Source of the DNA: Candidatus Dojkabacteria bacterium
GTDB taxonomy: Bacteria > Patescibacteriota > Dojkabacteria > SC72
Length of the DNA: 64,000 bases
NCBI GenBank assembly: GCA_016182915.1
Contig: JACPFP010000002.1
Coordinates: 230,244 to 294,243, forward strand
Direction: 5' to 3'
This document shows positions 25,202-41,547 of this stretch, in pieces. The stretch's first letter is position 1; each line of letters starts with the position of its first letter. The notes under the pieces were generated by a model, which was given only the letters and a program-made list of their open reading frames with translations, did not search any database and had not been told where the DNA came from. The position numbers and the translations under genes are program-made.

Positions 25202-26106
25202 TATTGGTATATAATTAGAGTCTTCTCTTTATCAACCCAATTTTCACCTTTAAACCTCTCTCTAACTTTTACGTTCATCTCATGTGAGAAATCAAATGTG
25301 GGTTTATAGTTATCCAACATCCATTTAGTAATTTCATCATTATCAAGGATTGGGATCATTCCATCCGTAAATAAGAGGATTCGATCCCCTGCCTCCAGAT
25401 CGACGACATGACTTTGAAAGAACTGTGTTGCCCTCTTATCACCATTAAAAATGCCAAATCCCACTTTATTTCCGGCTTCATCTTTCACATTAGGATTATT
25501 TCTTAAGACTGTACACCAGTAAATCTCCCAGTCGTGTTCAGTAATCACTTTTTTTCTTATATCATCAGGTATCTGAGCTAGGAAGATATCCTTTCCAATA
25601 AGGGTATTAGCATGCTTAAGAGCCTTCATAATCTGATACTTCATGGGATTTACTTGTTCTAACGATCCCTTGCGTAAAACATTTACATAGCAATCTTCTA
25701 ACCCACCATAGTACAATTTACCTTCAAAAATAAAGGCTCCAAATCCTACTGTTTCAGGAGTGTCGTAATTTAGGGGGTCGACAGGGTCCCTATCAAGTTT
25801 ACCGTTGAAACTGGCAATATCCTGATTTATCTTCTCAAGTATCTCGTTTACAGTTCCCTCTCCCACCTTTTTCTCAAAAATATACTCTTTAGCGTACTTA
25901 ATAAAGCCAGCACAGAATATCTCTGCCACCTCACTCTCATAGTCTTCAAAAGGAAATGTTCTTACCGCTCTAGTATGCCCTCTTAACACACCATCTGCCA
26001 CGGCAAAGATATGTAAGTCACTGTCAATGGCCCATGCGTCCCCGCTTGGAAGAAAAGATGCTTCATTTGAGGGGTTATCATGATATACAAAAATTCCTTT
26101 ATTCAT
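25198..26106 (-). CDS. PP2C/SpoIIE-like protein phosphatase (tentative)
   Basis: The motifs FAVADGV and RILLFTDGMIP resemble PP2C metal-binding motifs (xxDGHGG and xxSDGL). Confidence 0.4.
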   Translation of the reverse strand: MNKGIFVYHDNPSNEASFLPSGDAWAIDSDLHIFAVADGVLRGHTRAVRTFPFEDYESEVAEIFCAGFIKYAKEYIFEKKVGEGTVNEILEKINQDIASFNGKLDRDPVDPLNYDTPETVGFGAFIFEGKLYYGGLEDCYVNVLRKGSLEQVNPMKYQIMKALKHANTLIGKDIFLAQIPDDIRKKVITEHDWEIYWCTVLRNNPNVKDEAGNKVGFGIFNGDKRATQFFQSHVVDLEAGDRILLFTDGMIPILDNDEITKWMLDNYKPTFDFSHEMNVKVRERFKGENWVDKEKTLIIYQY

Positions 26107-26692: not shown

Positions 26693-29233
26693 CTACCTAA
26701 GAGTCAGAGGAGGTGTTCCACTCTGGTTATCAGCCAAAGAACCCTCTGTAACAGCCAATCCTGCTCTTTGATTTATCTCCTGTTCAACAACATTCACATC
26801 TCTACCATATTTCAGCCTCGACAACTCCCTAATCTTTTGGGACATCTCTTTATTTACTGGAAGGTCAAAACCAGATTCAGGATAGCTGGGACCGTAGGAA
26901 GAGTCCAAAGAGAAAGGAGCTGGATATTTACCCCCTGAGATAAGCTTCACATACCAATGTAGGTTGGCCTGATTCATAATATCGTTCGCCGTAAAGACAG
27001 GATCAAACTGTGACTCCAAGAATTTAGCATCTTCGGGACCGGTTCTTGCTATGAGAAGTGTACCAACATTTCCGAAGATAGAGTTCTTGATATGCTCCTC
27101 CATCTGCGCAATATACTGGTTCGCGACAGTGAGGTTAAGACGGTATTTTCTTGCCTCAGAAAGAATAGAAGCAAATTCTTCTGTAGCGAAGTTCTGAAAC
27201 TCATCTACATAAAAGAAGAAATCCTTTCTCTCTTCTTCAGGAATATCCTCACGGCTCAAGGCAGCAGCAACAAGCTTAGGAATGAGGATTGTCCCGAGGA
27301 ACTGCATGTTTTCCTCCCCTACCAGACCCTTAGAAAGATTTACTATCAATATCTTCTTATTATCCATAACTTCCCTCATGTTGAATGAAGATTGAGATTG
27401 CCCAATAATATTCCTAACGGCAAGGTTGGTTACAAACCTATCGAACTTTGAGGTTAGATAGCCGAGAGTCTCTGATTTATGAAAATCACTTGTTTTTGCA
27501 ATTTGGTCCGTCCAAAACCTCTTAACCATGTCATCCTTAATCAGTGGAATCCACTTCTCATCAACCCACTTCTGATCTGTAATAATCCTTAATACCTCAA
27601 CAAGGGTGGAACCTTTCTCAGACATGGCGGTAAGCATTGCATTACGAACCGTTCTTTCAAGGATAGGGCCAACAATACCCTGGTTATGGGGATCGAAGAT
27701 CTTCTTAAGAAGACCTATAAACCCGTTTACAATTCTATGCTTATCCTGCTCGTCCGAAAACTCCATCATGTTAAAACCGAAAGGCCTTTGATTATCGGAT
27801 ACATCGAAATATATAACATCCTCAGCTCTTTCATGAGGGATACGATCAAGGACCATCTGAGCAGTCTGTCCGTGAGGATCAATGAAACAAACTCCATCGC
27901 CGTTATATATATCTTGAAGGATCATCCTTACAAGAAGCCATGACTTACCTGAACCTGTCTGTCCTAATACATAGGCATGTCTTCTTCTATCGTCTCTTTG
28001 GAAACATATTCTCTTTCTATTGCCTCTAAAAACATTATCACCTAACCATATAGTGTCCTTAGAGTTTACATCTGAACTAATCCAGTTTGCAGCTGGTGCC
28101 TCTTTAGCAAGAAGCCAGTTAATATTAGGTGTTGTGATCTCTTTATTTGGAAGGTGAAAGAGACTCGCAAGCTCATCGATATTTAGGATAGATCCGCTCT
28201 TTAAAGGCATTCTTCTATAGATAACATCATTCATGAAATCCCTACCCTTGAGCTTGTTCAACTTCTCTTTTTTAAATTCATTAATACCTGGATTGGAGAA
28301 CTGATCAAAAGCACCTACGATATTATTTAGATGCATATTAGCCAAATCTGAGTCCGAAGCAGATGTAACTATACGAATAGCGGTCCTAAACCCTATCTTA
28401 GACGTTTTCTTGCTTATTGCTTGCAACTGTTCCTGACTTACACTAATTCTCTTCTTCTCTGGGTCGGAGTTCGATTCTTCAACCTTCTGTACAAACTTCC
28501 TACCGTTTTTCTGCCATTTACTCCCCGCAGGAGAGATAACCAACTGGATAAGGGCACCTTCTCCATCCTCCATTTTACTTAAGGTACTCAAAATATTTGA
28601 GAGAGGATCTCCAGAAAAGTCTTCCGCTACTTTAACCGGATAGTATGGCTCATCTGTCTGGACCAGGCTTGCATATGCAACCTTGGAATTCTCACCGAAG
28701 ATATTATATTCATCCGTCCTTATAATTTCAGCCTCCTGATAGGAGCCTAATATCTGTTTCTCAACTAGGTCAGCTAGTTTCTTAGGAGCATATACATAGA
28801 ATCGAATCTCACCCGGAAGCCCAACCATCTCAAAACTAATACTATTTCCAACGGTCAGATATTTTTGAATACCCTTCCCTGCGCCACCGATTCCATATAG
28901 GTTCGCAAACATCTTTTCCGCGACTCCAACCTCTAACTCATTCCCCCTGGGGGCTCTAACCTCAATTAATACTCCAAGTTTGCTTTTTTCATCCCTGTCT
29001 TTTCTTTTTAAAATATTTGAATAGTAGTAGAGGGCGCCAATAATTCCTCCAATAAGGAGGGAAATTAGAAGAACCCACATAAAGACAGATACAAATGTGA
29101 TATTAGAACCATCCGTCTCCCCAAGAGAATCCTGTGGATAGACCACATTCTCCCCTGGTGTTACATCACCAGGTTGTATAGGGCCAATAGTCTGAGAGTA
29201 AACAAGATTAGTATAATCTAGAGCAGTTCGCAT
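26693..29233 (-). CDS. membrane-anchored P-loop ATPase of the HerA/FtsK/VirB4/VirD4 (AAA_10/TraG-D_C-like) superfamily
   Basis: 846 aa. A single N-terminal TM helix, a ~350-aa non-ATPase region, Walker A LGQTGSGKS, then DPHGQ, Walker B FFFYVDEFQNF, and an ARKYRLNLTVANQ motif typical of HerA/VirB4/FtsK-type translocases. Confidence 0.65.
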   Translation of the reverse strand: MRTALDYTNLVYSQTIGPIQPGDVTPGENVVYPQDSLGETDGSNITFVSVFMWVLLISLLIGGIIGALYYYSNILKRKDRDEKSKLGVLIEVRAPRGNELEVGVAEKMFANLYGIGGAGKGIQKYLTVGNSISFEMVGLPGEIRFYVYAPKKLADLVEKQILGSYQEAEIIRTDEYNIFGENSKVAYASLVQTDEPYYPVKVAEDFSGDPLSNILSTLSKMEDGEGALIQLVISPAGSKWQKNGRKFVQKVEESNSDPEKKRISVSQEQLQAISKKTSKIGFRTAIRIVTSASDSDLANMHLNNIVGAFDQFSNPGINEFKKEKLNKLKGRDFMNDVIYRRMPLKSGSILNIDELASLFHLPNKEITTPNINWLLAKEAPAANWISSDVNSKDTIWLGDNVFRGNRKRICFQRDDRRRHAYVLGQTGSGKSWLLVRMILQDIYNGDGVCFIDPHGQTAQMVLDRIPHERAEDVIYFDVSDNQRPFGFNMMEFSDEQDKHRIVNGFIGLLKKIFDPHNQGIVGPILERTVRNAMLTAMSEKGSTLVEVLRIITDQKWVDEKWIPLIKDDMVKRFWTDQIAKTSDFHKSETLGYLTSKFDRFVTNLAVRNIIGQSQSSFNMREVMDNKKILIVNLSKGLVGEENMQFLGTILIPKLVAAALSREDIPEEERKDFFFYVDEFQNFATEEFASILSEARKYRLNLTVANQYIAQMEEHIKNSIFGNVGTLLIARTGPEDAKFLESQFDPVFTANDIMNQANLHWYVKLISGGKYPAPFSLDSSYGPSYPESGFDLPVNKEMSQKIRELSRLKYGRDVNVVEQEINQRAGLAVTEGSLADNQSGTPPLTLR

Positions 29234-29286
29234 AGAGTATCGATTAGATTTATTGATAAAAGGATATCACAAAAAACGTACTCTTT

Positions 29287-29889
29287 CTATTCTCCGAAGA
29301 TAGCAAAGATCTTCTTAATAAGAGTTGCAGCCCATGTTCGACCGTCGTTAATATCTCCCTGCTCAGAAATATTACTTGCGTCATTGGTAAGGGCATCATC
29401 TACCTGATAACCAAATAGCTTGAAAGTTTGGGTATTAGCAGTGGTTGCATTCTCCTCTTCAACACGAGATTTCTCCTCTGCACTAAGTTTATTGCCATCC
29501 TCAACCCCACTTTCAGTAAGTTTAATCTCATTCTCTTTCACAGTCTCAACCAGAGTTGCAAACTCCTCACTCTCCTTACTTGCATTAACCTGCTCCTCAA
29601 CCTTTGGAGCATCAACTAAAGGTGCAGATGAAACCTCGGAAGATACCTCCAGGGAAGGTAGCTCATCTAAAGACTCAACAGGCTGTTCTGCAGTTGGCTG
29701 ATTGGAATTATATTTTTCTAATATACCATTCTGCCTAAGTATCTCTTTTTTCTGATCTAAGGATAGTGTTGACCATACTGAGTCGGGAATTAGTCCAACG
29801 AGCTCGGTAGGTAAAGTGCGAATCCAGCCTGCATTTTCTAAGGCCGCACTCTTTGTTTCTAGGTTGTTTACTACAGGGGTATCTTGCAT
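29287..29889 (-). CDS. hypothetical acidic protein (200 aa)
   Basis: Low-complexity, E/S-rich middle region with no recognisable motif. Tightly packed between smpB and the ATPase. Confidence 0.35.
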   Translation of the reverse strand: MQDTPVVNNLETKSAALENAGWIRTLPTELVGLIPDSVWSTLSLDQKKEILRQNGILEKYNSNQPTAEQPVESLDELPSLEVSSEVSSAPLVDAPKVEEQVNASKESEEFATLVETVKENEIKLTESGVEDGNKLSAEEKSRVEEENATTANTQTFKLFGYQVDDALTNDASNISEQGDINDGRTWAATLIKKIFAIFGE

Positions 29890-29894
29890 ACCGA

Positions 29895-30338
29895 CTATTT
29901 TACCATATACTTTAATCTGTCTCTATGAAGCTCCCGATCCAGTTGTCTCTCCTTCTCTGTATTTCTCTTCTCCCTATCCTTCTTTCCCCTTCCTATACCA
30001 ACTAACACTTTTGCTTTTCCATGTGAAAAATACATCTTTAGGGGTACTAGGGTTCCTCCCCACTGCTTCGATTTACTATTTAACTGATAGAGTTCCTTTG
30101 TGTGCACAAGCAGTTTACGGGTTCTCTTGGCGTCATACTTAGGATCATTACTGAATTTGAACTTAGCAATATCTGCATTAACAAGCCATAGTTCGGAGCC
30201 AATAACTTTCACAAAAGAATCCTTTAAATCCACTCTATTATCCCTAATTGACTTGACCTCTGCTCCAGTTAGAACAATACCCGCCTCAAGGGTATCTTTG
30301 ATATCATAATTGAATTTTGCTTTTCTGTTATCAACCAT
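29895..30338 (-). CDS. smpB: SsrA-binding protein SmpB
   Basis: Whole-length match to SmpB: KFNYDI...LEAGIVLTGAEVKS...ELWL...I..F.......YD..R.RKLL.HK.E. Confidence 0.9.
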   Translation of the reverse strand: MVDNRKAKFNYDIKDTLEAGIVLTGAEVKSIRDNRVDLKDSFVKVIGSELWLVNADIAKFKFSNDPKYDAKRTRKLLVHTKELYQLNSKSKQWGGTLVPLKMYFSHGKAKVLVGIGRGKKDREKRNTEKERQLDRELHRDRLKYMVK

Positions 30339-30353
30339 GCCGGAATTATACCA

Positions 30354-32693
30354 TTACTTTTGAATAACGACTCTCCTGATAACGGTTCCATCCAAAATAT
30401 ACATATATCTCTCCTGATAGTCGGTAACTAGGTCCTGAACATCTTTAAAAACATCATCCCTATCTCCCTGATAGCGATACTCATTAACACGAAGGAGTTC
30501 ATTTGGATGTCTCGAATCCCCGATTGCCTCCTTAGGCTTCTCGAAAGATATGATTCTTGGAGAATCTCCACCTTCAAATATATACATAAGGTTATCCAAA
30601 GTTCCTCCTGTATGTCCTGCACTTGCACCACCTACAGCATTCAAACCCTCTGCACTAAGTGGGAGTTTTTGAGGATTATCTCCTGCGGAGTATCTTTCCA
30701 CCTCATTATCAACTCCCGTTACTACATAAATAGCAATATCACCGAAGAAATCTCTAGCTGAGTCAAAAGTTTCAGAACTTATATGGGCAAAAGGTAGTGT
30801 GTATCCGTTACCTGTGAAGTTTGATCTATATATTGCCTTGTTTGTGGGACTTAATAGGTATACATGATCATTCGGTGTGAATACCGCAAACTCGGAGACA
30901 TCATTAATTCCAAGGTCATCTGCCCCAAGTCCAGTAAGAGACTCAAAGTCCAGGTTTCCCAACTTACTATCAAACTGTGATCTGATCACTCCTGAAATTT
31001 CATCAAAGACATAAACACCATGAGTACCTATATCAATATATTTGGGTGACTTCACCAATCCCCTCTTGTCAGGAATCTTAACTGCACTCTTATCGAAAAT
31101 ATTTATTCTATATACAGCTTTCAATCCATTATCAACCACAAAGAGGGACTCATTCTGATAGTCGTCCTTGTAGACAGTCATATCCGTAGGCTGAGATTTC
31201 GACTCACCCTTTTTATCAAACTCAATACGTGTACTTAAAAATATCTCCAGGTTACCATTTTCTTCAGAAACCCAAACTCTCTTTGCAACTCTATCATCAA
31301 TTTTCCCTAACGATTCCTTAAGATCTGAGAGTTTCTTTTGGTCATCAAAGGATAACTTTTTACCCTCTACTTTTTGTAACTCTGCTGTCGCCTGTGTAAG
31401 GTAGCCGGAAGCCTGCTCTGTGTCACCCGGAAGATATGACTCAGCCTGTTTAATATAGTTCTCTACAACATCAAATACCTCAGCGGCAACTCTATGAAGC
31501 TCTCTAGCCTCTTTTGCTTTAATACTGAGCTGGATTCCCCCTAGAAGCGCTATCACGAGAAGCACCCCTAAAATCAAGGTTCCAAACCTCTTCCCTCGCA
31601 CTGAAGACTCTCTGTATCCATCAATTTTCATTCCGTACGCGGAACTACCTTTAGAGAGCCTCATTGCAGATAACTTTGACTTTATCCTTTTATACCAAAC
31701 TTGCCTACCATATTTATCATCTACAAATCCCCAGAAGGATCCTCCGAACTTGTGTAGAATCTTCTCTAACCTACTACTTAAAGGCATCATGAAGTTTGAA
31801 AGTTTATTCCATATCTCTAACCATGCGCTTTTTATCTTACCGGTCGTGCTGTTAAACCATATTACAAAAGTTGCCCACTTCTCTTTGAAAGTACTCTTCC
31901 GTACCTCAGATTCAATTTCTTTATTCTCAGGAACAGAAGGAACTTCCTCTGGTGGTTGAATTATTTCATACTCCTTATGAATAAGCTCTGTTGCTTGAGA
32001 CGTTACCTCAGAATCATACCCAGGTTCAGGATCTAAAGGGGCCTCTTCAATCTCTTCTATATCTTCAAAATCCTCTCCAATCTCCGACCTTGAAAGGAGG
32101 AGAACCCCTTGCCCTTTTTTCAAGGTATCATTTATCTCTAACAAGACTGATGATAGTTCGTCGCCCTTCATTCGTAGAAGAGTCTCACTGAATAGCATTG
32201 GAGAAGATATTATCAGGATGTCTTCCTGGCCCAATGCAAAACTTAATGCCATTACTTTATTCTTCTTTAGTACCTCAGACACATTAACGATATCTCCCTC
32301 CTTATGTACAAAGATCTCCTGTTCTCCAAAAACTCCTAAGAATGCGGTAGCTTCTTTTATCACCACTATGGCAAAACTTATATCAATTCCACCCTCCTCT
32401 ACCTCTTTATCGTTTTTCAACATTTCAAGAAGCTTCTTTGAACCTGCCGATATAGATTCTTTGACAGAATCAATAATAGAGCCCGATGAACCTGAGTACG
32501 TTTCAAGGATTGCATCCCAGACAAACTTAGATGCACGACTGGCATACCCTTCTGGGGTTTTAGAGACTGTAATTAGTGCATACATCTCTCCAACAGAGTT
32601 CCCTCCGTAATTTTCAGGAGTATATTTATAAACACTCGTTATAGACTGAGTATCTACCTCTTGTGAGATATATCTCTTTACAAAGATGGGCAT
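30354..32693 (-). CDS. large bitopic membrane protein: ~370-aa cytoplasmic N-terminal region, one TM, ~400-aa extracytoplasmic C-terminal domain
   Basis: A single central TM helix (TLILGVLLVIALLGGIQLSI). An acidic linker precedes it. The C-terminal half is rich in predicted beta strands. No catalytic motif recognised. Confidence 0.45.
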   Translation of the reverse strand: MPIFVKRYISQEVDTQSITSVYKYTPENYGGNSVGEMYALITVSKTPEGYASRASKFVWDAILETYSGSSGSIIDSVKESISAGSKKLLEMLKNDKEVEEGGIDISFAIVVIKEATAFLGVFGEQEIFVHKEGDIVNVSEVLKKNKVMALSFALGQEDILIISSPMLFSETLLRMKGDELSSVLLEINDTLKKGQGVLLLSRSEIGEDFEDIEEIEEAPLDPEPGYDSEVTSQATELIHKEYEIIQPPEEVPSVPENKEIESEVRKSTFKEKWATFVIWFNSTTGKIKSAWLEIWNKLSNFMMPLSSRLEKILHKFGGSFWGFVDDKYGRQVWYKRIKSKLSAMRLSKGSSAYGMKIDGYRESSVRGKRFGTLILGVLLVIALLGGIQLSIKAKEARELHRVAAEVFDVVENYIKQAESYLPGDTEQASGYLTQATAELQKVEGKKLSFDDQKKLSDLKESLGKIDDRVAKRVWVSEENGNLEIFLSTRIEFDKKGESKSQPTDMTVYKDDYQNESLFVVDNGLKAVYRINIFDKSAVKIPDKRGLVKSPKYIDIGTHGVYVFDEISGVIRSQFDSKLGNLDFESLTGLGADDLGINDVSEFAVFTPNDHVYLLSPTNKAIYRSNFTGNGYTLPFAHISSETFDSARDFFGDIAIYVVTGVDNEVERYSAGDNPQKLPLSAEGLNAVGGASAGHTGGTLDNLMYIFEGGDSPRIISFEKPKEAIGDSRHPNELLRVNEYRYQGDRDDVFKDVQDLVTDYQERYMYILDGTVIRRVVIQK

Positions 32694-32694
32694 T

Positions 32695-32946
32695 TTAACC
32701 TACAAGAATTAATATTACACAGAAAAGACTCCCTACAACCGCAACAAGAAGGTGTAGATATGATGCAAAAAGAACCTTTTTATTCGATGAGCTTTTAACT
32801 GTGTCATTTAAAATTCTCACTCTAATGGTGAGAAGGAGGGAGTATATTACATAGCCAAAAATTACAACTAGGAAGAGAAGTTTGAAGATACCTCCTGTAC
32901 TCTGAAACGTGAAATTGATTGTGTTTATTCCTTCTAAAAAGTCCAT
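32695..32946 (-). CDS. small two-TM membrane protein
   Basis: 83 aa with two hydrophobic helices. Start and stop are coupled to flanking genes (32946 is shared with the upstream bPH gene). Confidence 0.35.
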   Translation of the reverse strand: MDFLEGINTINFTFQSTGGIFKLLFLVVIFGYVIYSLLLTIRVRILNDTVKSSSNKKVLFASYLHLLVAVVGSLFCVILILVG

Positions 32947-33563
32947 TATATGTGTCCTTTCTTTTTCATTTCAAGTAAGTCGAGGAGAGTATCCTGTATA
33001 TCCCTTGGCCTTGGTACACCTGTAAATTCAAACTCCGGCTTTGAACCCGCGGTCTGGATATATACATCTCCATAGTCAAAAATACTACTTAATACTCCAG
33101 CAGGTGAATGCGATACATCCTCAATTTTATCCAAGTGGGCTTCTGAGAATCTATGAAAAAGAATATTATTAAAATCTACATCAACTATCCTGATATCCGT
33201 AATTATATTTACGGAATAGTACCATTTAAAATATGTATCACATGCTACAGTAAATGCCAGTAGAAGAAACAACAACCCAACTCCAAAGTTATATATAGGA
33301 CTGAAATCTCCTGTACCGCTGAATGCAGCAAAGAAGAGAAGTGGAGTTAAGAGAAGTCCGATAATAGCTAGATACCTTGGGATGAAAACTGCAGGGTGCT
33401 TCCTAACAATCAATACTACACTCTCTCCTTTATCCTGACCACTAAACGAAACAGTATCAGGAAACACACAGAAACTACCTGTGTTGTTTATAGAGTCAAC
33501 AGGAGACAGCTTTACTAGAAAAGACTTTTTCCCTTTTAAAAACTTTTTAGGTATTTTTCTCAT
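32946..33563 (-). CDS. membrane protein with a bacterial PH (bPH_2, YdbS/YdbT-like) domain
   Basis: Two N-terminal TM helices, then a ~90-aa domain with a bPH_2-like pattern (...YSVNIITDIRIVDVDF...GDVYIQTAG). Confidence 0.5.
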   Translation of the reverse strand: MRKIPKKFLKGKKSFLVKLSPVDSINNTGSFCVFPDTVSFSGQDKGESVVLIVRKHPAVFIPRYLAIIGLLLTPLLFFAAFSGTGDFSPIYNFGVGLLFLLLAFTVACDTYFKWYYSVNIITDIRIVDVDFNNILFHRFSEAHLDKIEDVSHSPAGVLSSIFDYGDVYIQTAGSKPEFEFTGVPRPRDIQDTLLDLLEMKKKGHI

Positions 33564-33674
33564 ACTAGTTCAAGATAACATAAATACAGTACTAGGACAA
33601 GAATAATTAGGTTGCATATCTTAATAGTAGTGATATACTTTTTAACATAATAATTTTATATATAAGACACTCAA

Positions 33675-34106
33675 ATGCTAGATGTACAAGAAAAAAGACG
33701 AATCACTGATGCCCTCGTACACCTCACAGATAGTCATACCACAGAACCTCTATCTTTAGGCGAAGACGAAGAGATATCAGGCCTTAAAATATCAAACTTC
33801 AGACAAGGGTTTGAGTCAGCAACATCAGAAAGTATCACTATACTTATGGAACTAATAGTGGAAGGTGGTAGCCAAGAGAGGCAGTATGCTGAGGAAAAGG
33901 ACTTACAAAGACTATGCGGGTTTATATGTGGGCTAAGATTTAGAGGAAATACCTATTTGGCAGACGAAATTTGGGGAAGGCTCAATCAAAGCGGAGCACT
34001 TGACGCTGATCAGGACGCAGCCGAAGCAAGTGTAGTTCAAATAGTGTTCGAGGAATATTTACAAGAGCAAGGAATACTGGCTAAAGAAGTCTGCAATCTT
34101 TGGTAA
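33675..34106 (+). CDS. hypothetical acidic protein (143 aa). This is the only plus-strand gene in this block.
   Basis: The ORF is convergent with the SpoIID-like gene. No motif recognised. Confidence 0.3.
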   Translation: MLDVQEKRRITDALVHLTDSHTTEPLSLGEDEEISGLKISNFRQGFESATSESITILMELIVEGGSQERQYAEEKDLQRLCGFICGLRFRGNTYLADEIWGRLNQSGALDADQDAAEASVVQIVFEEYLQEQGILAKEVCNLW

Positions 34107-34109
34107 TCA

Positions 34110-36002
34110 CTATTTCTTCTCTATATTTATAAAGGTAACGTTATTACCCTGAGGTGGAATCTGTAAATATCCAGGTGCTCTTAAGTTGTAGACCGCTTCA
34201 AAACTGGCTCCTGGAATAGTTATAGTTCCCCTATTTGTACTGAACAGAATCGATGAAGTCTGACCCTGACTAGAGAACGACGATACCACCGAGTACACCT
34301 CTTTAACTGGATTGTTAAGTAATCCAGCCATCTGATCCTTATTGTACGGATTACCTGCAATTCCAGAGATAGGGCAATCAGAAATTGTAACAGGGAGGAT
34401 TCTTGAATAATCTACACTACCTTTTAAACCACTCCCCTCGTTCACCAACCATACATTGATAATATCCGCCATTTCTTTATTTGATAGATAGTTTCTCCCC
34501 TTGTTATCGATATTAGTTACGTCCTTCTTTGAAGAGTTACAGACCCCACCATTAAGAAGATTATACCAAGTTTTATAGAACCAAGGGCTATTTCCATATT
34601 TGGATCCTTCATACGCATTCTCCGTCCAACTTCCGCTCCCACCCTGCTTATTCGTAGTATCCCATCCTGAGGTATTTAAATATCCTCCAGAGGTTGAAGA
34701 AAATTGGAAATTACCTGTTCCGCCACTCAGAACCCACTTACTCGTATAGTCCACAGCTTGCTGCCATGCACTCGCATTTTTCTCCTTTTTTACCACCTGA
34801 CAGCTCTGACTCGGACAGATATATACATGACCATTACATTTTGCACTGTGTGTTTGAATATATCTAAGGGCGTAGCTTCTTGCAGAGACAACCTGTGCTC
34901 TCAAGACCGCAGTTGGCCAGCTACTTGGAACCTCGTAGAGCCTCTTGAGATACTCATCTACAGTAAAAGCCTGACAATTAAAGGCCTGCCCGTATTCATT
35001 TGTACCGTTTACATAGATTAATGATGGTACCGCATAGCTTTTATTCAAAGTCTCAGTGCCATAGTAAGCCTTGAGGATTTGTTCCGCACTCTGCCCTGCC
35101 TTCGCCCGACCATATGCTCCATACTGGCTCATACCGTTTCTATGGGTATAGGCACCCAGGGAAAATACTGCAAAGCTACCCGATTTCGCATTTGATACAA
35201 AGCCTGTCTTTGAGGAAAGGTTCTCAACGCTACCAGGTACATCTCCAACTCCAATAATCCCTCCCGATGCCTTTGCTAGAAGTATCGCCTCCTGTAGCTT
35301 TGAAATTTCCCCTTTTAGTGACGATATATCACTTCCCAGCCTCGAAGAAAGACTCTTTTTTGATGCCGCCTGAGAAGCCAAAGCGACTTTCTGTGATATG
35401 AGAGACTCTTTAGACTTCTCTAATCCCTCCTTTTCCTCTTCTAAGGACCCTTTCTCTCTCTCAACTTCAAGTTTCTCCTGTTTGAGTTGAGCAAAATTCT
35501 GAGAAAGAAGCTTTAATTTACCTACATAGCCAAATCCACTTAATTTCCGAAGAAATAGACCACGCAGAAGATCATCAGCACTTCTATTCGCAAAAAGGTA
35601 CTCTATGAATCCGAAGCGTGAAGATTTGTATAAGTTGGAAGCAATATCATCCAGAGCTTTCTGTTCCTTCTCCAGCTCACTCTGTTTTTGATTGATTACC
35701 TTCTCTTTCTGCTTAATCTCGTTAGATGCAGACTTTATATAGGTATCAATCTTATCAACCTGAGCACTCATCAGTTCTATCTTCTCATCAATACTCACAC
35801 TGCTCTTGTTAATTTCCTCTATCTCCCTCTTTATTTTATCCAAAGTACTCTCTTTCTCTTTAATCTCCTGGTTCTTCTTCTCTACCTCACTCTCTAAGTC
35901 ACCAACATCCTGTGAAAAAGCAGGGAGAGTGAAAAAGACCAAGGCATATACAACGAAGAGGAGAGAAAAAAGGATAATTTTTGGGGCATTTCTAAATTCC
36001 AT
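34110..36002 (-). CDS. secreted or membrane-anchored coiled-coil protein with a SpoIID/LytB-type peptidoglycan lytic domain
   Basis: N-terminal signal/TM, then ~250 aa of heptad-rich E/K coiled coil. The SpoIID/LytB signatures follow: GMSQYGAYGRA, and AVLRAQVVSARSYAL...CNGHVYICPSQSCQVV. An unknown ~200-aa C-terminal domain completes the protein. Confidence 0.65.
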   Translation of the reverse strand: MEFRNAPKIILFSLLFVVYALVFFTLPAFSQDVGDLESEVEKKNQEIKEKESTLDKIKREIEEINKSSVSIDEKIELMSAQVDKIDTYIKSASNEIKQKEKVINQKQSELEKEQKALDDIASNLYKSSRFGFIEYLFANRSADDLLRGLFLRKLSGFGYVGKLKLLSQNFAQLKQEKLEVEREKGSLEEEKEGLEKSKESLISQKVALASQAASKKSLSSRLGSDISSLKGEISKLQEAILLAKASGGIIGVGDVPGSVENLSSKTGFVSNAKSGSFAVFSLGAYTHRNGMSQYGAYGRAKAGQSAEQILKAYYGTETLNKSYAVPSLIYVNGTNEYGQAFNCQAFTVDEYLKRLYEVPSSWPTAVLRAQVVSARSYALRYIQTHSAKCNGHVYICPSQSCQVVKKEKNASAWQQAVDYTSKWVLSGGTGNFQFSSTSGGYLNTSGWDTTNKQGGSGSWTENAYEGSKYGNSPWFYKTWYNLLNGGVCNSSKKDVTNIDNKGRNYLSNKEMADIINVWLVNEGSGLKGSVDYSRILPVTISDCPISGIAGNPYNKDQMAGLLNNPVKEVYSVVSSFSSQGQTSSILFSTNRGTITIPGASFEAVYNLRAPGYLQIPPQGNNVTFINIEKK

Positions 36003-36026
36003 ACCCTATTATACAGAAAGAGTGAA

Positions 36027-36350
36027 TTAGTTTCCTATGAAGTCCAGAACTCCTTTTAGAATTGCTCTGAAAAGGAAGAGAAATACCAAACCAACAATTG
36101 CCCATGTTAGAGTTCCTTGAGCCTGTTTTAATTTTCCAGGATCACCAGACGATAGCATCCACATATATCCACCGTACACAATCATGATTAAAGAGATTAG
36201 GCCACCAATTGGAAGGATAAGCTCGGAAACACTATCAACAATCCCACCAATCTCCTCTAATCTTGGAGGAGCGGCAGCAAGTACCTTTCGGGGAAGAAGA
36301 GCCATTACAGCCAGAGAGAGAGAGGTTAATGCGGTTTTAATTTTTTTCAT
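36027..36350 (-). CDS. VirB2/TrbC-like two-helix pilin paralog A
   Basis: Signal peptide (MKKIKTALTSLSLAVMALLP...A), then hydrophobic helix 1 ending YGGYMWMLSSGDPGKLKQAQ, then hydrophobic helix 2. Confidence 0.5.
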   Translation of the reverse strand: MKKIKTALTSLSLAVMALLPRKVLAAAPPRLEEIGGIVDSVSELILPIGGLISLIMIVYGGYMWMLSSGDPGKLKQAQGTLTWAIVGLVFLFLFRAILKGVLDFIGN

Positions 36351-36352
36351 AT

Positions 36353-36625
36353 TTATAGTTTTCCTAGTACATTATCTAATATAAATCTGACAATTAGAGG
36401 AGAGATAAAGACAACTATCAAACCTACCAAAGTATAAATAATACTTTTTTGGGCCTTCTCTGCCTTTCCACTATCCCCTGCTGAAAGTATATACTGAAAA
36501 CCTGAAAAAACCAATGAACCAACTGCAATGAGAGCCGAAATAGCAATAATGAGATTAATGGTACCTTGAACCATTTCTATGAGAGAGCTATAACCTGTAC
36601 TATTTATAATAGATATATCGAACAT
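36353..36625 (-). CDS. VirB2/TrbC-like two-helix pilin paralog B
   Basis: Shares the family core with the other four: ...VFSGFQYILSAGDSGKAEKAQKS..., then a second hydrophobic helix. Confidence 0.5.
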   Translation of the reverse strand: MFDISIINSTGYSSLIEMVQGTINLIIAISALIAVGSLVFSGFQYILSAGDSGKAEKAQKSIIYTLVGLIVVFISPLIVRFILDNVLGKL

Positions 36626-36682
36626 AAGGTACGAGATAATATAAAAAAGGCAGGAGCGAACTCCTGCCTTCCAAAGTCTTAA

Positions 36683-37051
36683 TTAAGCTTTCAAAAGCTC
36701 CTTAAGGACGAAGTTTACAATCAATACTGATATGAAACAAATAACCAAACCAATGATTGCATAAGTAATACCTTTTGTAGCTTTCTCAATCTTTCCATCA
36801 TCACCAGATGCAACGATATACTGGATACCACTGTATACAAGAACACCAACAGAGATAAGTGCGGCAAGAGCAATAATCAAGTTCAATGCATTCTGAATGA
36901 ATCCGATTAAATTTCCACCACTGGTAGAACCATTAACTCCCCCGATAAAATCACCTGCACTAGCTGCAAGAGTGGCTGAAGCAAAATACAAAGCAGATCC
37001 AAGTGATGCTGCGTATGTCCCGACCTTCGCGATTACATTACTAACTTTCAT
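36683..37051 (-). CDS. VirB2/TrbC-like two-helix pilin paralog C
   Basis: Core ...VYSGIQYIVASGDDGKIEKATKG... flanked by two hydrophobic helices. Longer Gly/Ser-rich N-terminal region. Confidence 0.5.
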   Translation of the reverse strand: MKVSNVIAKVGTYAASLGSALYFASATLAASAGDFIGGVNGSTSGGNLIGFIQNALNLIIALAALISVGVLVYSGIQYIVASGDDGKIEKATKGITYAIIGLVICFISVLIVNFVLKELLKA

Positions 37052-37142
37052 TGTTATTTAAGAGTAATTAAATTAATAGCTTATAACTACGGACATTATA
37101 TTATATGTGAAATCAATCTGCAATAGGATAAACACCAAATAT

Positions 37143-37478
37143 CTATCTTAAGAACTCAGTAATTAAGAACATTACAATCATGCGTGCTAAAAAGACTATT
37201 ATCATTCCAACAATTGAATTAGTTATAATACTTTGCGCCTGTTCTATCTTATCTCCGTCTCCTGCAGCGGTAATCATTGTAATACCTCCATATACAAGTA
37301 AAGCAACTAGAACCAACGCAGACAGGTTTACAGCACCATTAACGAGTTCAGTAGCCTTACCAACGGCTCCCCCAACAGTAGTAAAGGAATCACTTCCCCA
37401 AGGATTGGAAATTCCAAACCAGCTCGCAAACATATATCCTTTTTCTTTAACCTTCTCACTAATCTTTTTTAGATTCAT
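37143..37478 (-). CDS. VirB2/TrbC-like two-helix pilin paralog D
   Basis: Core ...VYGGITMITAAGDGDKIEQAQS... flanked by two hydrophobic helices. Confidence 0.5.
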   Translation of the reverse strand: MNLKKISEKVKEKGYMFASWFGISNPWGSDSFTTVGGAVGKATELVNGAVNLSALVLVALLVYGGITMITAAGDGDKIEQAQSIITNSIVGMIIVFLARMIVMFLITEFLR

Positions 37479-37496
37479 ATGTATTTATAAAATAGT

Positions 37497-37850
37497 TTAA
37501 GGATTTATCCCAGGGATATTTAACGTGTTCTTTATAAGAAGCAAGATAGCAACAGAAAGAGCAATTAACGCAAACCCTATCACTGCGTTAGTAACCACCT
37601 CCCTAGCCTCTTGCAATTTTTCTGGGTCGCCTTGGCTTGTAATCATGTTATAGCCAGCATAAGCAAAAAGTCCAATTGCGCTTAATACACCAACAGGGAT
37701 AGATAATTGGACAAGCGCATTTACTAGTGAAGGGATATCCTGTGAGTTAACTACATCAGTTACATTACCAGATATCGCATTACTCAAAGCATCTGCATAT
37801 GCTGGAGTTGAAATTGCATGAAAGAATTTTTCTAAAAGACTCTGTATCAT
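37497..37850 (-). CDS. VirB2/TrbC-like two-helix pilin paralog E
   Basis: Probable signal peptide (..STPAYA|D), core ...AYAGYNMITSQGDPEKLQEAREV..., then a second hydrophobic helix. Confidence 0.5.
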   Translation of the reverse strand: MIQSLLEKFFHAISTPAYADALSNAISGNVTDVVNSQDIPSLVNALVQLSIPVGVLSAIGLFAYAGYNMITSQGDPEKLQEAREVVTNAVIGFALIALSVAILLLIKNTLNIPGINP

Positions 37851-37868
37851 ATATGTTGGAATTATACA

Positions 37869-40856
37869 CTACAAAATAGCCTCTTCACAAACGTCTTGAT
37901 AGTTGCAATACATACAGTTGTGGGAACGAGGGATTGTGAAATCACCAGCTCTAATTTTCCCTACGATATTCTCTATCTTCTTAATAACATTCTTTTTTCT
38001 CCTATCTGTTACACTAATCTCTACCTTTTTACTATGCTCAACATAGATATACGAGGCTTTATCAACCTTAACACCCCACAAAGCTTCTGCCACGAGAGCG
38101 TAGAATACTAACTGCCACTGAGTATTAGCGTCCTTCTGAGACTTTGCCTTCCCTGTCTTGTAATCAATAATCTCCACATGTTTAACTCCGTCCTTAATCC
38201 CAAGAAGGTCCACCCTATCGACCTTTCCTAATACTCTAAAATCACTCATAGAGTACTTAAACGATTTTTCAAGAAATAGAGTTCTCTCTGTTCCCGTATG
38301 AAAGCTTTCAAAGTACCTCTCTAAAGCCTTCTTTCCAAACTCAAACCTCTTCTTCTCATGAGCCTTCGATTCATAGCCCTCAGGTTGCCAGAATGTTTCA
38401 TAAAGGTCCAGCAAGTCCTTCTTTCCAGGCTTATCTACAAATCCTTCAAGCCCTTCATTTGCAACAGCAAGCTTCTCATAGAAAGTTCTGAGTACATTAT
38501 GAACCGTGTTACCAAATGAAAGAGCTGCGTTTGTTGGGAGAGGAATTTTTAATACGTAGCTATACTTATACTGACGAGGACACATCTCATATGAAGCGAT
38601 TTGGGAGTAACTAAATTGATTCTTAAGCTCTACCCCCACCTTTTTGTAATCTATGATATCCGAGTTATCTAACCTCTGGAAAACCTGGAAGTCAACGGAA
38701 TCTTCTGTATCCTTAATACTCTTTAGGTCTTCATTTACATCTCTTCCCAAAACCTCATTCAAAAATCCACTTACCTTTCTAATCCGGCCAGCCCCGCTAT
38801 ACGACTTAGCCACACTCAAGAAAAGTTTCTCCTTTGCCCTCGTAACACCTACATAGAAAAGCCTCCTCTCCTCGTGTAAGTGTTCATTTACCTCTTCACC
38901 ACTTGGTAGGACCTCTTTTATCAGGTCGTTGGGTATAGCAAGTTTGTCATACTTCGCCCTGGTTGGAAATCTATCCTCAACGAGGTTAACAATGAAAACG
39001 ACAGGAAACTCTAAACCCTTAGATCCATGTACTGTTGAAATATTAACACCTTCAAAATCAGCGACTGCTTCACCATTTGTACTAGGGTTCTCCCCAATTT
39101 CAAGACTGTAGTCTAAATAATCAAGATACTCATAGATGGTTGCTCCGACATTGCTTTTTTCAAATTCCTTAAGCATCTCAAAATACTTCCTAATATTCTC
39201 AACTTTGAAGATATCTTTCTGATTATCTTCTTTGATAATATTGTCTTTCCAACCGCTTTTATCGAAAAATTCGTAGAGAATATGACCCACACCTTTACCC
39301 TCTTTAACCAACTCGAACCCTCTTCTCAGAAGTTTAACAATATTACTTATCGCTGTTAATGCCGTATTATTGAGTCTCTTCTTTAGTTGAGAAACTTCCT
39401 CTTCCTTCTCAACTATCTTCTCAAAAAGTTCAAATAGAGGTATATGAGTCTTCCTGGAATACCTCATCAGTTCAACCACCTCTCGTGCTTCGAAGCCCCA
39501 AACCTTCATACTTAAGATATTAAACATAGAAACCCCATGGTCGTAGTCTGAAAGAAGCCTTAGATATGAAATTAGAACTTTAATCTCATCAGTATTGTAT
39601 AATCCCTTCGCGCCTCCAAATCTGTATGGAATTCCCCTGTACCTAAGGGCCTGAATAAAGTCCTCGCTCTGAGTATGAGCTCTAACAAGGATAGCCATAT
39701 CGGAGTATGTATACTTCTTTTCAACCTCTACCATCTCACTTATAAGTTTTGCAATCTGATCTGCTTCATTTGATCCGGTATTTGAGAGGATTAGTTTAAC
39801 CGCATCTTTTTCGTCTTTCTCGTAATCAGCCCTTGCAATCAGCCGCTTACTCGTTTGCTCCGTTACCTCAAGTCTATACGGATTATTGTTCTGTATTAGC
39901 CTGTATGCACAATCTAGTATCTCCTGTTTAGAGCGGTAGTTTTCAGTCAGAACAATTCGCTTTGCGGTTGAGTACACATCTTTAAACTGGATTATGTTTG
40001 AGATAGCTGCGCCACGAAACTTATAGATGGATTGATCATCATCCCCAACCACTGTAATATTCGCCGATTTACTCTCTTTCTCACTAATATCTTTCGGATC
40101 TTTACCTGTTGCCAGCATGTTCACAAGTACGTTCTGGGTATAGTTTGTATCCTGATACTCGTCTACAAGGATATATTTAAATTTCTCATGATACTTCTTA
40201 AGGATATTAGGTCTGTCTCTAAAAAGTTTGATTACAGTATTTATTAGATCTCCAAAGTCCAATCGAGATTCCTTTAATTTTAACTCTGTGAAGAATTTGT
40301 ATGCGTTAGCTAGTTCAACCATCTGTTTTTTATCCAATCCTTTTGTATCATCATCTTCCTTAATCCCATTTGCATACTTGATATAGTCCTCCGGGGTTAC
40401 ATCCTCATCTTGAAGTCTGGAAAAGTGGCTGAGGATTTGGGATATAAAACCGCTTGGGTTGCCAAGGGGGCGGAAAATATCTAATGGCATCTCGAATATA
40501 TGTTTACGAAAGAGCATATATGCTTCAACCTCAGTCATTAGTTTGTAGTTGGGATTGAGTCCAAGAAAAATACTCTCCTGTCTTAGAATCCTATCGCAAA
40601 AGGAGTGGAAGGTTGATATCCACACCTCTTCGTATCCGTATGGCATAGCCACATCTACTCTTTCTAGCATCTCTTTTGATGCCTTTTCAGTGAATGTTAG
40701 GGCCAATATCTCAGATGGTTTAGCCCATCCTTTGTTTACAATATTGAGTATTCTCTGGGTTATAACTGCTGTCTTTCCCGTGCCGGCTCCAGCAATTATA
40801 AGAAGTGGCCCAGATTTATGATTAACGGCTTCAAGTTGAGATTTATTAAGATCCAT
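37869..40856 (-). CDS. UvrD/PcrA-like SF1 helicase fused to a C-terminal Cas4/AddB-type PD-(D/E)xK nuclease with an Fe-S cluster
   Basis: N-terminal helicase motif I AGAGTGKT, then the UvrD motifs DEYQDT and the VGDDDQSIY region. The C-terminal ~250 aa have an N-terminal Cys (CPRQYKY), an exonuclease core (EIIDYKTGK), and a C-terminal CMYCNYQDVC triad typical of 4Fe-4S RecB-family nucleases. Confidence 0.8.
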   Translation of the reverse strand: MDLNKSQLEAVNHKSGPLLIIAGAGTGKTAVITQRILNIVNKGWAKPSEILALTFTEKASKEMLERVDVAMPYGYEEVWISTFHSFCDRILRQESIFLGLNPNYKLMTEVEAYMLFRKHIFEMPLDIFRPLGNPSGFISQILSHFSRLQDEDVTPEDYIKYANGIKEDDDTKGLDKKQMVELANAYKFFTELKLKESRLDFGDLINTVIKLFRDRPNILKKYHEKFKYILVDEYQDTNYTQNVLVNMLATGKDPKDISEKESKSANITVVGDDDQSIYKFRGAAISNIIQFKDVYSTAKRIVLTENYRSKQEILDCAYRLIQNNNPYRLEVTEQTSKRLIARADYEKDEKDAVKLILSNTGSNEADQIAKLISEMVEVEKKYTYSDMAILVRAHTQSEDFIQALRYRGIPYRFGGAKGLYNTDEIKVLISYLRLLSDYDHGVSMFNILSMKVWGFEAREVVELMRYSRKTHIPLFELFEKIVEKEEEVSQLKKRLNNTALTAISNIVKLLRRGFELVKEGKGVGHILYEFFDKSGWKDNIIKEDNQKDIFKVENIRKYFEMLKEFEKSNVGATIYEYLDYLDYSLEIGENPSTNGEAVADFEGVNISTVHGSKGLEFPVVFIVNLVEDRFPTRAKYDKLAIPNDLIKEVLPSGEEVNEHLHEERRLFYVGVTRAKEKLFLSVAKSYSGAGRIRKVSGFLNEVLGRDVNEDLKSIKDTEDSVDFQVFQRLDNSDIIDYKKVGVELKNQFSYSQIASYEMCPRQYKYSYVLKIPLPTNAALSFGNTVHNVLRTFYEKLAVANEGLEGFVDKPGKKDLLDLYETFWQPEGYESKAHEKKRFEFGKKALERYFESFHTGTERTLFLEKSFKYSMSDFRVLGKVDRVDLLGIKDGVKHVEIIDYKTGKAKSQKDANTQWQLVFYALVAEALWGVKVDKASYIYVEHSKKVEISVTDRRKKNVIKKIENIVGKIRAGDFTIPRSHNCMYCNYQDVCEEAIL

Positions 40857-40887: not shown

Positions 40888-41190
40888 CTATTTAACAATA
40901 CTGTTTAACCAACTTTCAAAATCGCTGTTTATTTTATCTACCCCTAACTGACCTATAAAGTTATCATAGTTGATTTCGCGTTTAATGACATCTTTAACCG
41001 CGTCGTACTTACCTTCCTTAGTCTTTACAATTAGAACCACTTCAGGTTCTTCAGTGACCTTTCCTTCATATTTATATATACATGTAATTGGAAAAAAATT
41101 AACACAGTTCGCGAGGTTTAAATCTAGAAGCTTCATACCGATTCTTTTGGCTTCGTCATTATTATTTAAAGTAATGTATATAATATTCAT
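40888..41190 (-). CDS. cutA: CutA1 divalent-cation tolerance protein
   Basis: 100 aa with the CutA pattern ...A.....L...LANCVNFFP.I.CIY.YEGKV.EE.EVVLIVKT.... Confidence 0.7.
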   Translation of the reverse strand: MNIIYITLNNNDEAKRIGMKLLDLNLANCVNFFPITCIYKYEGKVTEEPEVVLIVKTKEGKYDAVKDVIKREINYDNFIGQLGVDKINSDFESWLNSIVK

Positions 41191-41244
41191 GGATATTTCC
41201 GATTAAATTAGCAATTAATATTAGCTTGAACTTCACCTGCGAGT

Positions 41245-41547
41245 CTAGTACTCACTTTTATAGACCTTACTTCCTCCTGAGTGACCACCGATAGTTAAAA
41301 CGATTATCATTTTAGATTTTCCACTAAAGTTCCATAGTATGCGGAGATCCCCCGTAACTTTGGACGCATACACAATACCGAAAAGATGTGAGTTTACTTT
41401 ATGTGTGTTAAGAGACTCTGCAAATGGATCCAGGGATAGTATTTCAATAACTTTCTTAACTTTAATTACTAAATGAGAGTTTCCTTTAGATACCTTATGA
41501 AGTTTTCTAACATAATATGTAGTTTGATCAATGTGGTATCTATTCAT
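41245..41547 (-). CDS. type II toxin, RelE/ParE superfamily
   Basis: 100 aa. Pattern ...VKKVIEILSLDPF...HKV.SHLFGIVY..KV.GDLRILWNF...KMIIVLTIGGH resembles RelE/StbE. Overlaps the upstream antitoxin gene by 8 nt. Confidence 0.55.
   Translation of the reverse strand: MNRYHIDQTTYYVRKLHKVSKGNSHLVIKVKKVIEILSLDPFAESLNTHKVNSHLFGIVYASKVTGDLRILWNFSGKSKMIIVLTIGGHSGGSKVYKSEY

Follow-up and report, generated by a model that had tools for sequence, protein, structure and literature searches.

Few machineries have been shown to be essential for the way in which Patescibacteria live as epibionts, and one of them is their type IV secretion system (T4SS). The essential T4SS of Southlakia epibionticum resembles Gram-positive conjugation systems but carries in addition a pilin series that is itself essential (Wang et al. 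2023, PMC10633639). In the survey of 3,035 Patescibacteria genomes by Quinonero-Coronel et al. (2025, PMC12102498) VirB4 was found in 2,417 genomes, VirB2-like pilins formed 441 arrays of 2-11 genes with a mean identity of about 25%, and 148 of the 5,713 VirD4-like ATPases, which are present in 2,918 genomes, lay near virB4; there were almost no relaxases. The same survey reports that VirB6 is scarce in Microgenomatia and that non-VirB1 hydrolases may serve the T4SS in Patescibacteria. A 2025 review (PMC12857230) summarises the T4SS findings in this group. Here we analyse a 64,000-nt stretch of the chromosome of a Candidatus Dojkabacteria bacterium (contig JACPFP010000002.1), called the window below, in which positions 26693-40856 hold genes for five VirB2-like pilins, a SpoIID/LytB-type wall enzyme and a membrane-anchored ATPase.

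We consider it rather probable that this region is a class-conserved Dojkabacteria mosaic of four separable kinds of unit, the pilins and the ATPase of which come from the known Patescibacteria T4SS repertoire. The original prediction had read the same genes as a divergent, undescribed apparatus for DNA or effector transfer that lacks VirB4. This interpretation is partly supported, but not where it reads the genes as one new VirB4-free secretion machine. Every gene it named is found at its coordinates, on the minus strand and with the domains given, and two open reading frames (ORFs) are to be added, the acidic 200-amino-acid (aa) ORF and the plus-strand ORF of the list below. That the apparatus is undescribed is not supported, since essential pilin arrays and VirD4-like ATPases that are usually far from virB4 are already known in the Patescibacteria T4SS (PMC10633639; PMC12102498; PMC12857230). 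The genes and their conserved downstream neighbours are, in the direction of the minus strand:

37869-40856, minus strand: PcrA/UvrD-type SF1 helicase fused to a PD-(D/E)XK (Cas4-like) nuclease, 995 aa (Pfam, NCBIfam)
37497-37850, minus strand: VirB2-like pilin 1, 117 aa (PF18895 T4SS_pilin, 31.5 bits against a gathering score of 26.6)
37143-37478, minus strand: VirB2-like pilin 2, 111 aa (PF18895, 38.2 bits; aligned with the other pilins)
36683-37051, minus strand: VirB2-like pilin 3, 122 aa (PF18895, 47.3 bits)
36353-36625, minus strand: VirB2-like pilin 4, 90 aa, without N-terminal leader (PF18895, 43.0 bits)
36027-36350, minus strand: VirB2-like pilin 5, 107 aa, with a signal-peptide-like N-terminus (PF18895, 45.7 bits)
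34110-36002, minus strand: SpoIID/LytB protein with N-terminal coiled coil, secreted or anchored, 630 aa (PF08486)
33675-34106, plus strand: non-conserved ORF of 143 aa, in a variable spot between the SpoIID and bPH-like genes
32946-33563, minus strand: membrane protein of 205 aa, bPH-like in its C-terminal domain (bPH_2 with 20.8 bits, under the threshold of 22)
32695-32946, minus strand: DUF5657 protein with two transmembrane (TM) segments, 83 aa (PF18901, 1.8e-13)
30354-32693, minus strand: bitopic protein of 779 aa, 100% identical to HYV12_01560 of a Candidatus Dojkabacteria (WS6) bacterium (no Pfam family; AlphaFold2 model with a mean confidence score, pLDDT, of 75)
29895-30338, minus strand: SmpB, the tmRNA-binding protein, housekeeping (PF01668, 6.8e-49)
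29287-29889, minus strand: small, lineage-specific partner gene next to the ATPase on its upstream side; the product is acidic and has 200 aa
26693-29233, minus strand: membrane-anchored P-loop ATPase with a DUF8128 region, similar to type IV coupling proteins (T4CPs), 846 aa (Walker A GQTGSGKS, Walker B YVDEFQ)
24275-25201, plus strand: XerC-type tyrosine recombinase, conserved neighbour downstream of the ATPase (listed for context)
23732-24184, minus strand: DivIC (Pfam DivIC), conserved neighbour downstream of the ATPase

Similar to the Patescibacteria-type T4SS (derived from the MPF-FATA type; SEML1_0006-0019 in S. epibionticum), the locus has tandem divergent PF18895 pilins on the chromosome of a monoderm and a VirD4-like ATPase away from virB4, and no relaxase is present among the scanned ORFs of the window. 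However, the virB4 cluster of S. epibionticum itself contains the pilin array, together with PrgI, VirB6 and lysozyme/CHAP hydrolases, whereas here virB4, virB3 and virB6 are absent from the 64 kb and the array is followed by the SpoIID module, about 7 kb from the ATPase. The locus thus adds a Dojkabacteria example of a pilin array detached from virB4 and fixed beside a SpoIID-type wall enzyme.

The Pfam scans covered, beyond the named genes, most other sizeable ORFs of the window (roughly at least 100 aa). As predicted, none of these ORFs is a VirB4, VirB6, VirB8-10, relaxase or prepilin peptidase; PrgI, VirB3 and TrbL gave no match within the window either. Since it was the window that was scanned, the absence holds for these 64 kb. 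The two Dojkabacteria rows of Table S1 of PMC12102498 that we considered are both marked VirB4 'Yes'. Therefore, the lack of VirB4 is a property of the window and probably not one of the genome; as a feature of the apparatus it is not supported.

Conservation of the locus within and beyond Dojkabacteria

A scan of GTDB with the ATPase profile, one genome per species, retrieved 80 loci across the Candidate Phyla Radiation (CPR), from Dojkabacteria, many Microgenomatia, WWE3, ABY1 groups, Paceibacteria groups, Berkelbacteria, Doudnabacteria and Saccharibacteria-type contigs. The locus comparison, made over 82 ATPase loci, combined searches with the window proteins, clustering of all neighbour genes and a hidden Markov model (HMM) of the pilins. 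We note that the organism names given for many third-party-annotation 'binchicken' metagenome-assembled genomes are unreliable: clearly CPR-type loci (L005, L009, L012, L016 and others) stand under the titles 'uncultured Gammaproteobacteria', 'Candidatus Saccharibacteria' or even 'Bathyarchaeia'.

Within Dojkabacteria the order is shared by nine loci, each from a different species (L001-L003, L016 and L084-L088). It starts with AP endonuclease, the UvrD-nuclease, 2-5 pilins, SpoIID, the bPH-like and the DUF5657-like genes and continues with a protein of about 740-780 aa, SmpB, the small ORF, the ATPase, XerC on the opposite strand and DivIC. The co-conservation expected of one apparatus is therefore seen inside the class. 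Outside it the gene set splits into separate units, and pilins, SpoIID module and ATPase are no longer conserved together, which weakens the idea of a single functional set.

The first unit, the pilin array, occupies this position only in Dojkabacteria. The second is the block of SpoIID, bPH-like, DUF5657 and large membrane protein genes, which recurs without pilins, on the downstream side of the ATPase, in the Levybacteria loci L005, L008 and L020. The third, the small protein and the ATPase, is found across CPR beside housekeeping genes, with the ATPase in all loci. Its neighbours XerC (22 loci) and DivIC (14 loci) are always downstream and occur in Dojkabacteria and Microgenomatia; DnaX (14 loci), GyrB, ribonucleotide reductase with NrdR, CysS and CorA also recur. 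None of the 82 loci has a relaxase or VirB4 near the ATPase, an association seen only for its distant plasmid relatives, nor do they contain a further large Walker A ORF with the look of VirB4. In Dojkabacteria the housekeeping flanks (EF-P, FtsH) are as syntenic as the gene set, and SmpB and the helicase-nuclease are embedded in it. Hence, conserved order alone does not demonstrate shared function here.

Pilin array and envelope module

By profile and by helix-loop-helix layout the five tandem ORFs read as VirB2/TrbC-type T4SS pilins, and all exceed the PF18895 gathering score, in agreement with the original prediction. Pilin 5 is also above the cut-off of PF04956 TrbC/VirB2 (29.9 against 27.9 bits), and its relatives carry the NCBI labels 'pilin' or 'Mbov_0395 family pilin-like conjugal transfer protein'. 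Pilin 3 matches the NCBIfam model of the latter family at 2.9e-7, which is below that model's cut-off. In the alignment pilins 2-5 have 20-31% identity to pilin 1, in line with the arrays described in PMC12102498, and two hydrophobic helices flank a conserved S-x-GD-x-x-K loop; N-terminal extensions are present in all pilins but pilin 4. The pilin HMM found matches solely in Dojkabacteria among the ATPase loci, while the divergent Dojkabacteria locus L006 has no pilins near its ATPase. No second pilin locus beside virB4 was recovered: all retrieved pilin homologues sit at this same locus in other Dojkabacteria.

Two putative transcription signals frame the first three pilin genes:

37861-37890, minus strand: promoter-like TTGTGA-18-TATAAT shortly before pilin 1, still within the 3' end of the helicase gene (consensus match only)
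36645-36672, minus strand: strong terminator-like hairpin right behind pilin 3, with a stem of 12 bp and then a T run

The promoter-like motif is kept in position in the related loci L001 (4202-4231) and L002 (5655-5684). The hairpin is kept in position as well (L001 5419-5444, L002 6822-6849), although the sequence of its stem differs. These positions suggest that pilins 1-3 may be a separate unit with strong expression, from which transcription reads through into pilins 4-5 and SpoIID, and that the helicase-nuclease is not functionally tied to the array. They also suggest that expression may differ within the array.

The 630-aa protein that follows the array matches PF08486 with 41.6 bits against 23 (2e-10) and TIGR02669 with 71 bits, below the cut-off of 83.3. 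It is a candidate enzyme for the cleavage of peptidoglycan glycan strands, judging from these profile matches. The 143-aa plus-strand ORF behind it has no Pfam, NCBIfam or PHROG match and no homologue in the 82 loci. The gene of the 205-aa membrane protein stands as predicted, while its assignment to bPH is weak; homologues of this gene always adjoin SpoIID in Dojkabacteria and Levybacteria. The DUF5657 protein has a Levybacteria counterpart (L008:16713-16952) that also matches the family (1.3e-8). It was considered as a VirB3/PrgI protein and rejected, with no PrgI or VirB3 match in Pfam or NCBIfam.

The AlphaFold2 model of the 779-aa protein contains a cytoplasmic PP2C-like domain (residues about 1-205), a low-confidence linker, a TM helix near residues 370-395, a helical stalk and an extracytoplasmic six-bladed NHL-like beta-propeller (472-779). 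In a Foldseek search against the Protein Data Bank (PDB) its best partners are the PP2C phosphatases tPphA, PstP and PppA at about 1e-7 (also SpoIIE) and NHL/Pizza propellers at 6e-9; the PP2C domain has no Pfam PP2C match. The metal-binding aspartates that define PP2C enzymes are not conserved among 15 homologues, in which D158 is the single near-invariant acidic residue of the domain. Hence, the domain is probably catalytically dead, a predicted pseudophosphatase. With its cytoplasmic PP2C fold, one TM helix and extracytoplasmic domain the protein is similar to the membrane-anchored PP2C phosphatases with an extracellular sensor (PstP-type). However, unlike in these enzymes, the metal-binding aspartates are not conserved and the extracellular part is an NHL-like six-bladed propeller. 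Full-length homologues are found only in Dojkabacteria, diverged to 34-56% identity in the nine species of the shared order, and the propeller is homologous to a 588-aa protein of Levybacteria (hhalign probability 82%, E 1e-5). The role of a scaffold similar to VirB8 or VirB10 was also considered for the 779-aa protein and rejected, because its fold is PP2C-like plus beta-propeller; there is nothing VirB6-like in it either. A second PP2C-like protein is encoded within 7 kb, downstream of the ATPase (25198-26106, minus strand, 302 aa, PP2C_2/SpoIIE-like), and no partner kinase for the two is seen in the window.

We regard it as quite possible, though a little less than an even chance, that SpoIID, the bPH-like protein, DUF5657 and the propeller protein form a general module of wall growth or division, a membrane-controlled coiled-coil hydrolase like EnvC or PcsB with no link to the pilus. 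A coiled coil joined to a hydrolase resembles in layout the regulators of division hydrolases, and the Levybacteria have the module without pilins. Moreover, a diacylglycerol kinase gene stands between pilin 5 and SpoIID in L087 (10324-10713) and L088 (6001-6390); hence the junction is not inviolable. On the other hand, SpoIID comes directly after the array in the window, where the gap is 24 bp, and also in the array-carrying Dojkabacteria loci, and the proposal that non-VirB1 hydrolases may serve the Patescibacteria T4SS (PMC12102498) also speaks for a pilus link.

ATPase and its small partner

The 846-aa ATPase scores above the Pfam gathering thresholds of T4SS-DNA_transf, TrwB_AAD_bind, TraG-D_C and DUF87. 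It has the layout of a T4CP: an N-terminal membrane anchor made of one hydrophobic helix, a nucleotide-binding domain that contains both Walker motifs, A and B, and an all-alpha domain as an insertion. Its N-terminal half carries PF26449 (DUF8128) in precomputed annotations. The best NCBIfam models are VirD4-like CD1115 and TraD, yet all T4CP equivalogs stay far below their cut-offs (for example 46.8 bits against 250 for CD1115). The VirB4 profiles are not reached: there is no CagE_TrbE_VirB match, and AAA_10 (12.9 against 27.5 bits), CD1110 (29 against 325) and VirB4_plasma (17.9 against 590) remain below threshold.

Structure comparison by Foldseek gives full-length TrwK/VirB4 first (E 1e-16 over about 890 columns) and TrwB after it (E 4e-13, target TM-score 0.68). 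Nevertheless, unlike VirB4 (TrwK of R388; T. pseudethanolicus VirB4, 4ag5) the ATPase has a TM helix of its own at the N-terminus, and the global TM-score to TrwK is 0.29. In a profile search of PDB sequences the best hits are DotL and TrwB (also HerA), over the P-loop region only, and nothing matches the DUF8128 domain. Alignment of the ATPase profile with the pCF10 proteins by hhalign is of low probability for both PrgJ (VirB4, 8.7%) and PcfC (VirD4, 5.8%).

With FtsK/SpoIIIE the ATPase shares the P-loop superfamily, the membrane anchor and the neighbourhood of XerC and DivIC. Its ATPase domain is, however, much closer in structure to the C-terminal domain of VirB4 and to TrwB than to FtsK, and the FtsK_SpoIIIE motor with alpha and gamma domains is not found in it. 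The original prediction had named a lack of co-conservation in related genomes as a finding that would speak against it, and this is what is seen outside Dojkabacteria. The idea of an FtsK replacement, taken from the XerC and DivIC neighbours, was rejected: S. epibionticum keeps a canonical essential FtsK (SEML1_0096; supplementary tables of PMC10633639), and the structural match to FtsK is the weaker one.

The relatives outside CPR are found on plasmids and in phages. By BLASTP, residues 132-812, which take in most of the DUF8128 region, align with a DUF87 protein of the Bacillus subtilis plasmid NRS6107_2 (NZ_OX419568.1; E 4e-39, 24% identity). The gene of this protein (L090 6111-8852) directly precedes that of a replication-relaxation protein, and TcpE and an AAA_10 VirB4 are encoded a few genes further on; this VirB4 aligns with our ATPase at a BLASTP E of 0.46. 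Relatives on haloarchaeal megaplasmids cover 75-88% of the ATPase length. In the one block inspected, on the Halorussus plasmid NZ_CP096663.1 (L091), two ATPases labelled 'TraM recognition domain' (5508-8786 and 9899-12922) have a PF18895 pilin (1263-1604) a few genes upstream. Large Bacillus phages also carry relatives (JN638751.1, Bacillus phage G gp156; CampHawk; SPO1-like phages; 0305phi8-36), with 20-24% identity over residues 131-829 and a phrog_5156 match at E 1e-89; a scan of IMG/VR viral contigs with the ATPase gave no match.

Similar to the plasmid T4CPs, the CPR ATPase has Walker A and B motifs with an all-alpha insertion and matches Pfam TrwB_AAD_bind together with DUF87 (as the B. 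subtilis protein) or TraG-D_C (as the haloarchaeal proteins). Unlike these T4CPs, which adjoin a relaxase-type protein and VirB4/TcpE, it is chromosomal and vertically inherited, has a lineage-specific small partner and housekeeping neighbours, and is without relaxase. Because of the T4CP sequence matches and the plasmid relatives in conjugation-type operons, we suggest that the ATPase is best described as derived from the coupling protein that monoderm and archaeal conjugation systems (MPF-FATA-type) use.

Conservation of the ATPase is strong. Identity is 60-88% among the 119 best database relatives, far above that of its neighbours, and is about 50% in the ATPase domain of more distant representatives; 20,752 relatives are counted among 50%-identity representatives. 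Some CPR genomes have two paralogues, adjacent or a few genes apart (L045, L060, L065, L077), which is consistent with the roughly two VirD4-like genes per genome of the published survey. The second copies of L045, L065 and L077, which are full-length, group apart in a clade of their own in a rough neighbour-joining tree.

The small partners belong to lineage-specific families. The acidic 200-aa protein has no family match in Pfam, NCBIfam or PHROG, and a short ORF on the same strand (below 330 aa, mostly 100-200 aa) is found at most 400 bp upstream of the ATPase in 62 loci. Many small partners of Dojkabacteria and Microgenomatia have in common a C-terminal amphipathic W-[LA]-A...K-K motif.

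In S. epibionticum, besides the VirB4-like SEML1_0008, two T4CP-like ATPases are recorded: the non-essential SEML1_0293 (921 aa) and the essential SEML1_0142 (1,019 aa), before which stands SEML1_0141, a hypothetical protein of 139 aa that is likewise essential, and after which come two minus-strand genes and then gyrB (PMC10633639). The Saccharibacteria-type loci L068, L070 and L051 show the same context, that is, a small ORF, the ATPase, a 189-aa minus-strand gene and a minus-strand gene with a PKD domain. GyrB comes next in L068 and L051, and L070 ends before that point; L049 and L080 contain the same gene families in a different orientation. These ATPases fall in the main, taxonomy-tracking clade of the tree together with the window ATPase. 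Because of this shared context and tree placement, the window cassette is likely, by synteny, the counterpart of SEML1_0141/0142, both of them essential. This pair goes unmentioned in the main text of Wang et al. (PMC10633639), and it is not counted in the T4SS cluster. The survey calls the t4cp homologue of S. epibionticum non-essential (PMC12102498), and SEML1_0293 would fit this gene.

Hence, the comparison of 82 loci points to a conserved two-gene cassette, the small protein and the DUF8128/T4CP-like ATPase, in many CPR lineages. Since by synteny it corresponds to an essential and unstudied pair in the only genetically tractable species, it is a concrete experimental target. A new apparatus without VirB4, as first stated, would leave current views unchanged; what remains of interest is the Dojkabacteria-specific linkage of pilin array and SpoIID and the conserved ATPase cassette, which is probably essential.

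Proposed mechanism, alternatives and neighbouring genes

In the mosaic that we favour, units lying side by side would probably be co-transcribed, as is common in reduced genomes. The pilin array would provide pilus subunits of the known Patescibacteria (MPF-FATA-derived) T4SS, which are inserted into the membrane. A platform of the VirB4/VirB3/VirB6 type, most likely encoded elsewhere in the genome, would then extract and polymerise them, and the multiple paralogues may allow surface variation for the contact with the host cell. The most likely task of the envelope module is to remodel peptidoglycan, and it may thereby make way for the pilus through the wall, yet it exists without pilins. The ATPase cassette would derive from a coupling protein and be inherited vertically across CPR. 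By analogy with TrwB/VirB4 the ATPase is expected to be hexameric, and its most likely role is that of the translocase ATPase that recruits substrates, for the T4SS or for a derived function. The UvrD-nuclease and SmpB would be unrelated housekeeping genes.

Several observations weigh against this reading. VirB4, VirB3 and VirB6 of this genome are not seen in the 64-kb window. VirD4-like ATPases occur in more genomes than VirB4 (PMC12102498; counts above), and the ATPase has replication and division genes as neighbours; both hint at a role outside the T4SS. Since Foldseek ranks full-length TrwK over TrwB, the ATPase could also be VirB4-like in layout. Finally, the Dojkabacteria units are tightly packed, with gaps of 1-57 bp, which is also compatible with a real functional coupling.

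Tentatively, one can go further and take the small partner and the ATPase as an ancient, vertically inherited CPR-wide machine, with SEML1_0141/0142, essential by transposon sequencing, as the Saccharibacteria counterpart by synteny. It would be an overlooked coupling or motor ATPase of the T4SS, which in Dojkabacteria forms a supra-operon with the pilins and the SpoIID module for host contact or transfer, or else a new essential membrane translocase outside secretion. We hold this to be somewhat unlikely.

Less likely still, the ATPase and its partner were exapted to a housekeeping role, such as a membrane-anchored DNA translocase in chromosome handling or division, or the uptake of host nucleic acids, and their proximity to the pilins is accidental. 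Such a role would agree with the recurrent XerC, DivIC, DnaX, GyrB and ribonucleotide reductase neighbours, with the unusually strong conservation of the ATPase, with the fact that VirD4-like ATPases occur in more genomes than VirB4, with the full-length relatives in large Bacillus phages and with the position of the synteny-matched essential pair outside the counted T4SS cluster. However, in tiny genomes housekeeping neighbours count for little as evidence, the closest relatives outside CPR are encoded in conjugation operons, and the retention of canonical FtsK in S. epibionticum argues against an FtsK replacement.

That positions 26693-40856 encode one self-contained non-canonical apparatus for pilus formation and translocation without VirB4, in which the DUF8128 ATPase powers assembly and transfer and SpoIID is the wall hydrolase, is improbable: the strict co-linearity and tight spacing of the nine Dojkabacteria loci and the haloarchaeal plasmid, which likewise pairs a PF18895 pilin with two such ATPases, speak for it, but its parts separate outside the class, SmpB and the helicase-nuclease lie within the block between equally syntenic housekeeping flanks, the 779-aa protein has no VirB-like fold, the ATPase sequence fits T4CP families and a plasmid protein in T4CP position and not VirB4, and the two VirB4-positive Dojkabacteria assemblies considered in Table S1 (PMC12102498) also stand against it.

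We return to the mosaic, in which the helicase-nuclease is a housekeeping repair or recombination enzyme, a neighbour of the pilin array but no part of it; it can not be kept as the DNA-processing component of an apparatus. Its Pfam matches are UvrD-helicase (1e-72), UvrD_C (2e-52), PDDEXK_1 (2e-36) and Cas_Cas4 (4e-10), and its NCBIfam matches are pcrA (4e-132) and cas4 (4e-21). In Dojkabacteria the gene lies downstream of that of AP endonuclease, and a homologue without pilins is found in the Microgenomatia locus L017. The XerC-type genes of L001 and L002 have Phage_integrase domains.

The other ORFs scanned in the window are by Pfam housekeeping or miscellaneous genes and include Rho, RadA, a ClpB-type protein, S1, an rRNA operon, DNA ligase, PolA, FtsH, EF-P, DivIC, XerC and AP endonuclease. 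Relative to L001 and L002, extra genes are present at 40888-42681, where they separate the gene of AP endonuclease from that of the helicase-nuclease: CutA1, two 100-aa ORFs that overlap and look like a toxin-antitoxin pair, and a NUDIX protein with an N-terminal DUF7347 region. A giant ORF of 2,235 aa at 57178-63885 on the minus strand has fibronectin type III repeats and may be a surface adhesin; its start codon may differ, since the exact product matches no recorded gene. Last but not least, the plus-strand ORF at 53844-54776, amid NUDIX and GNAT genes, matches PF18723 (1.7e-20), the helical domain of 5-hmdU DNA kinase, an enzyme that normally belongs to the DNA hypermodification of phages.

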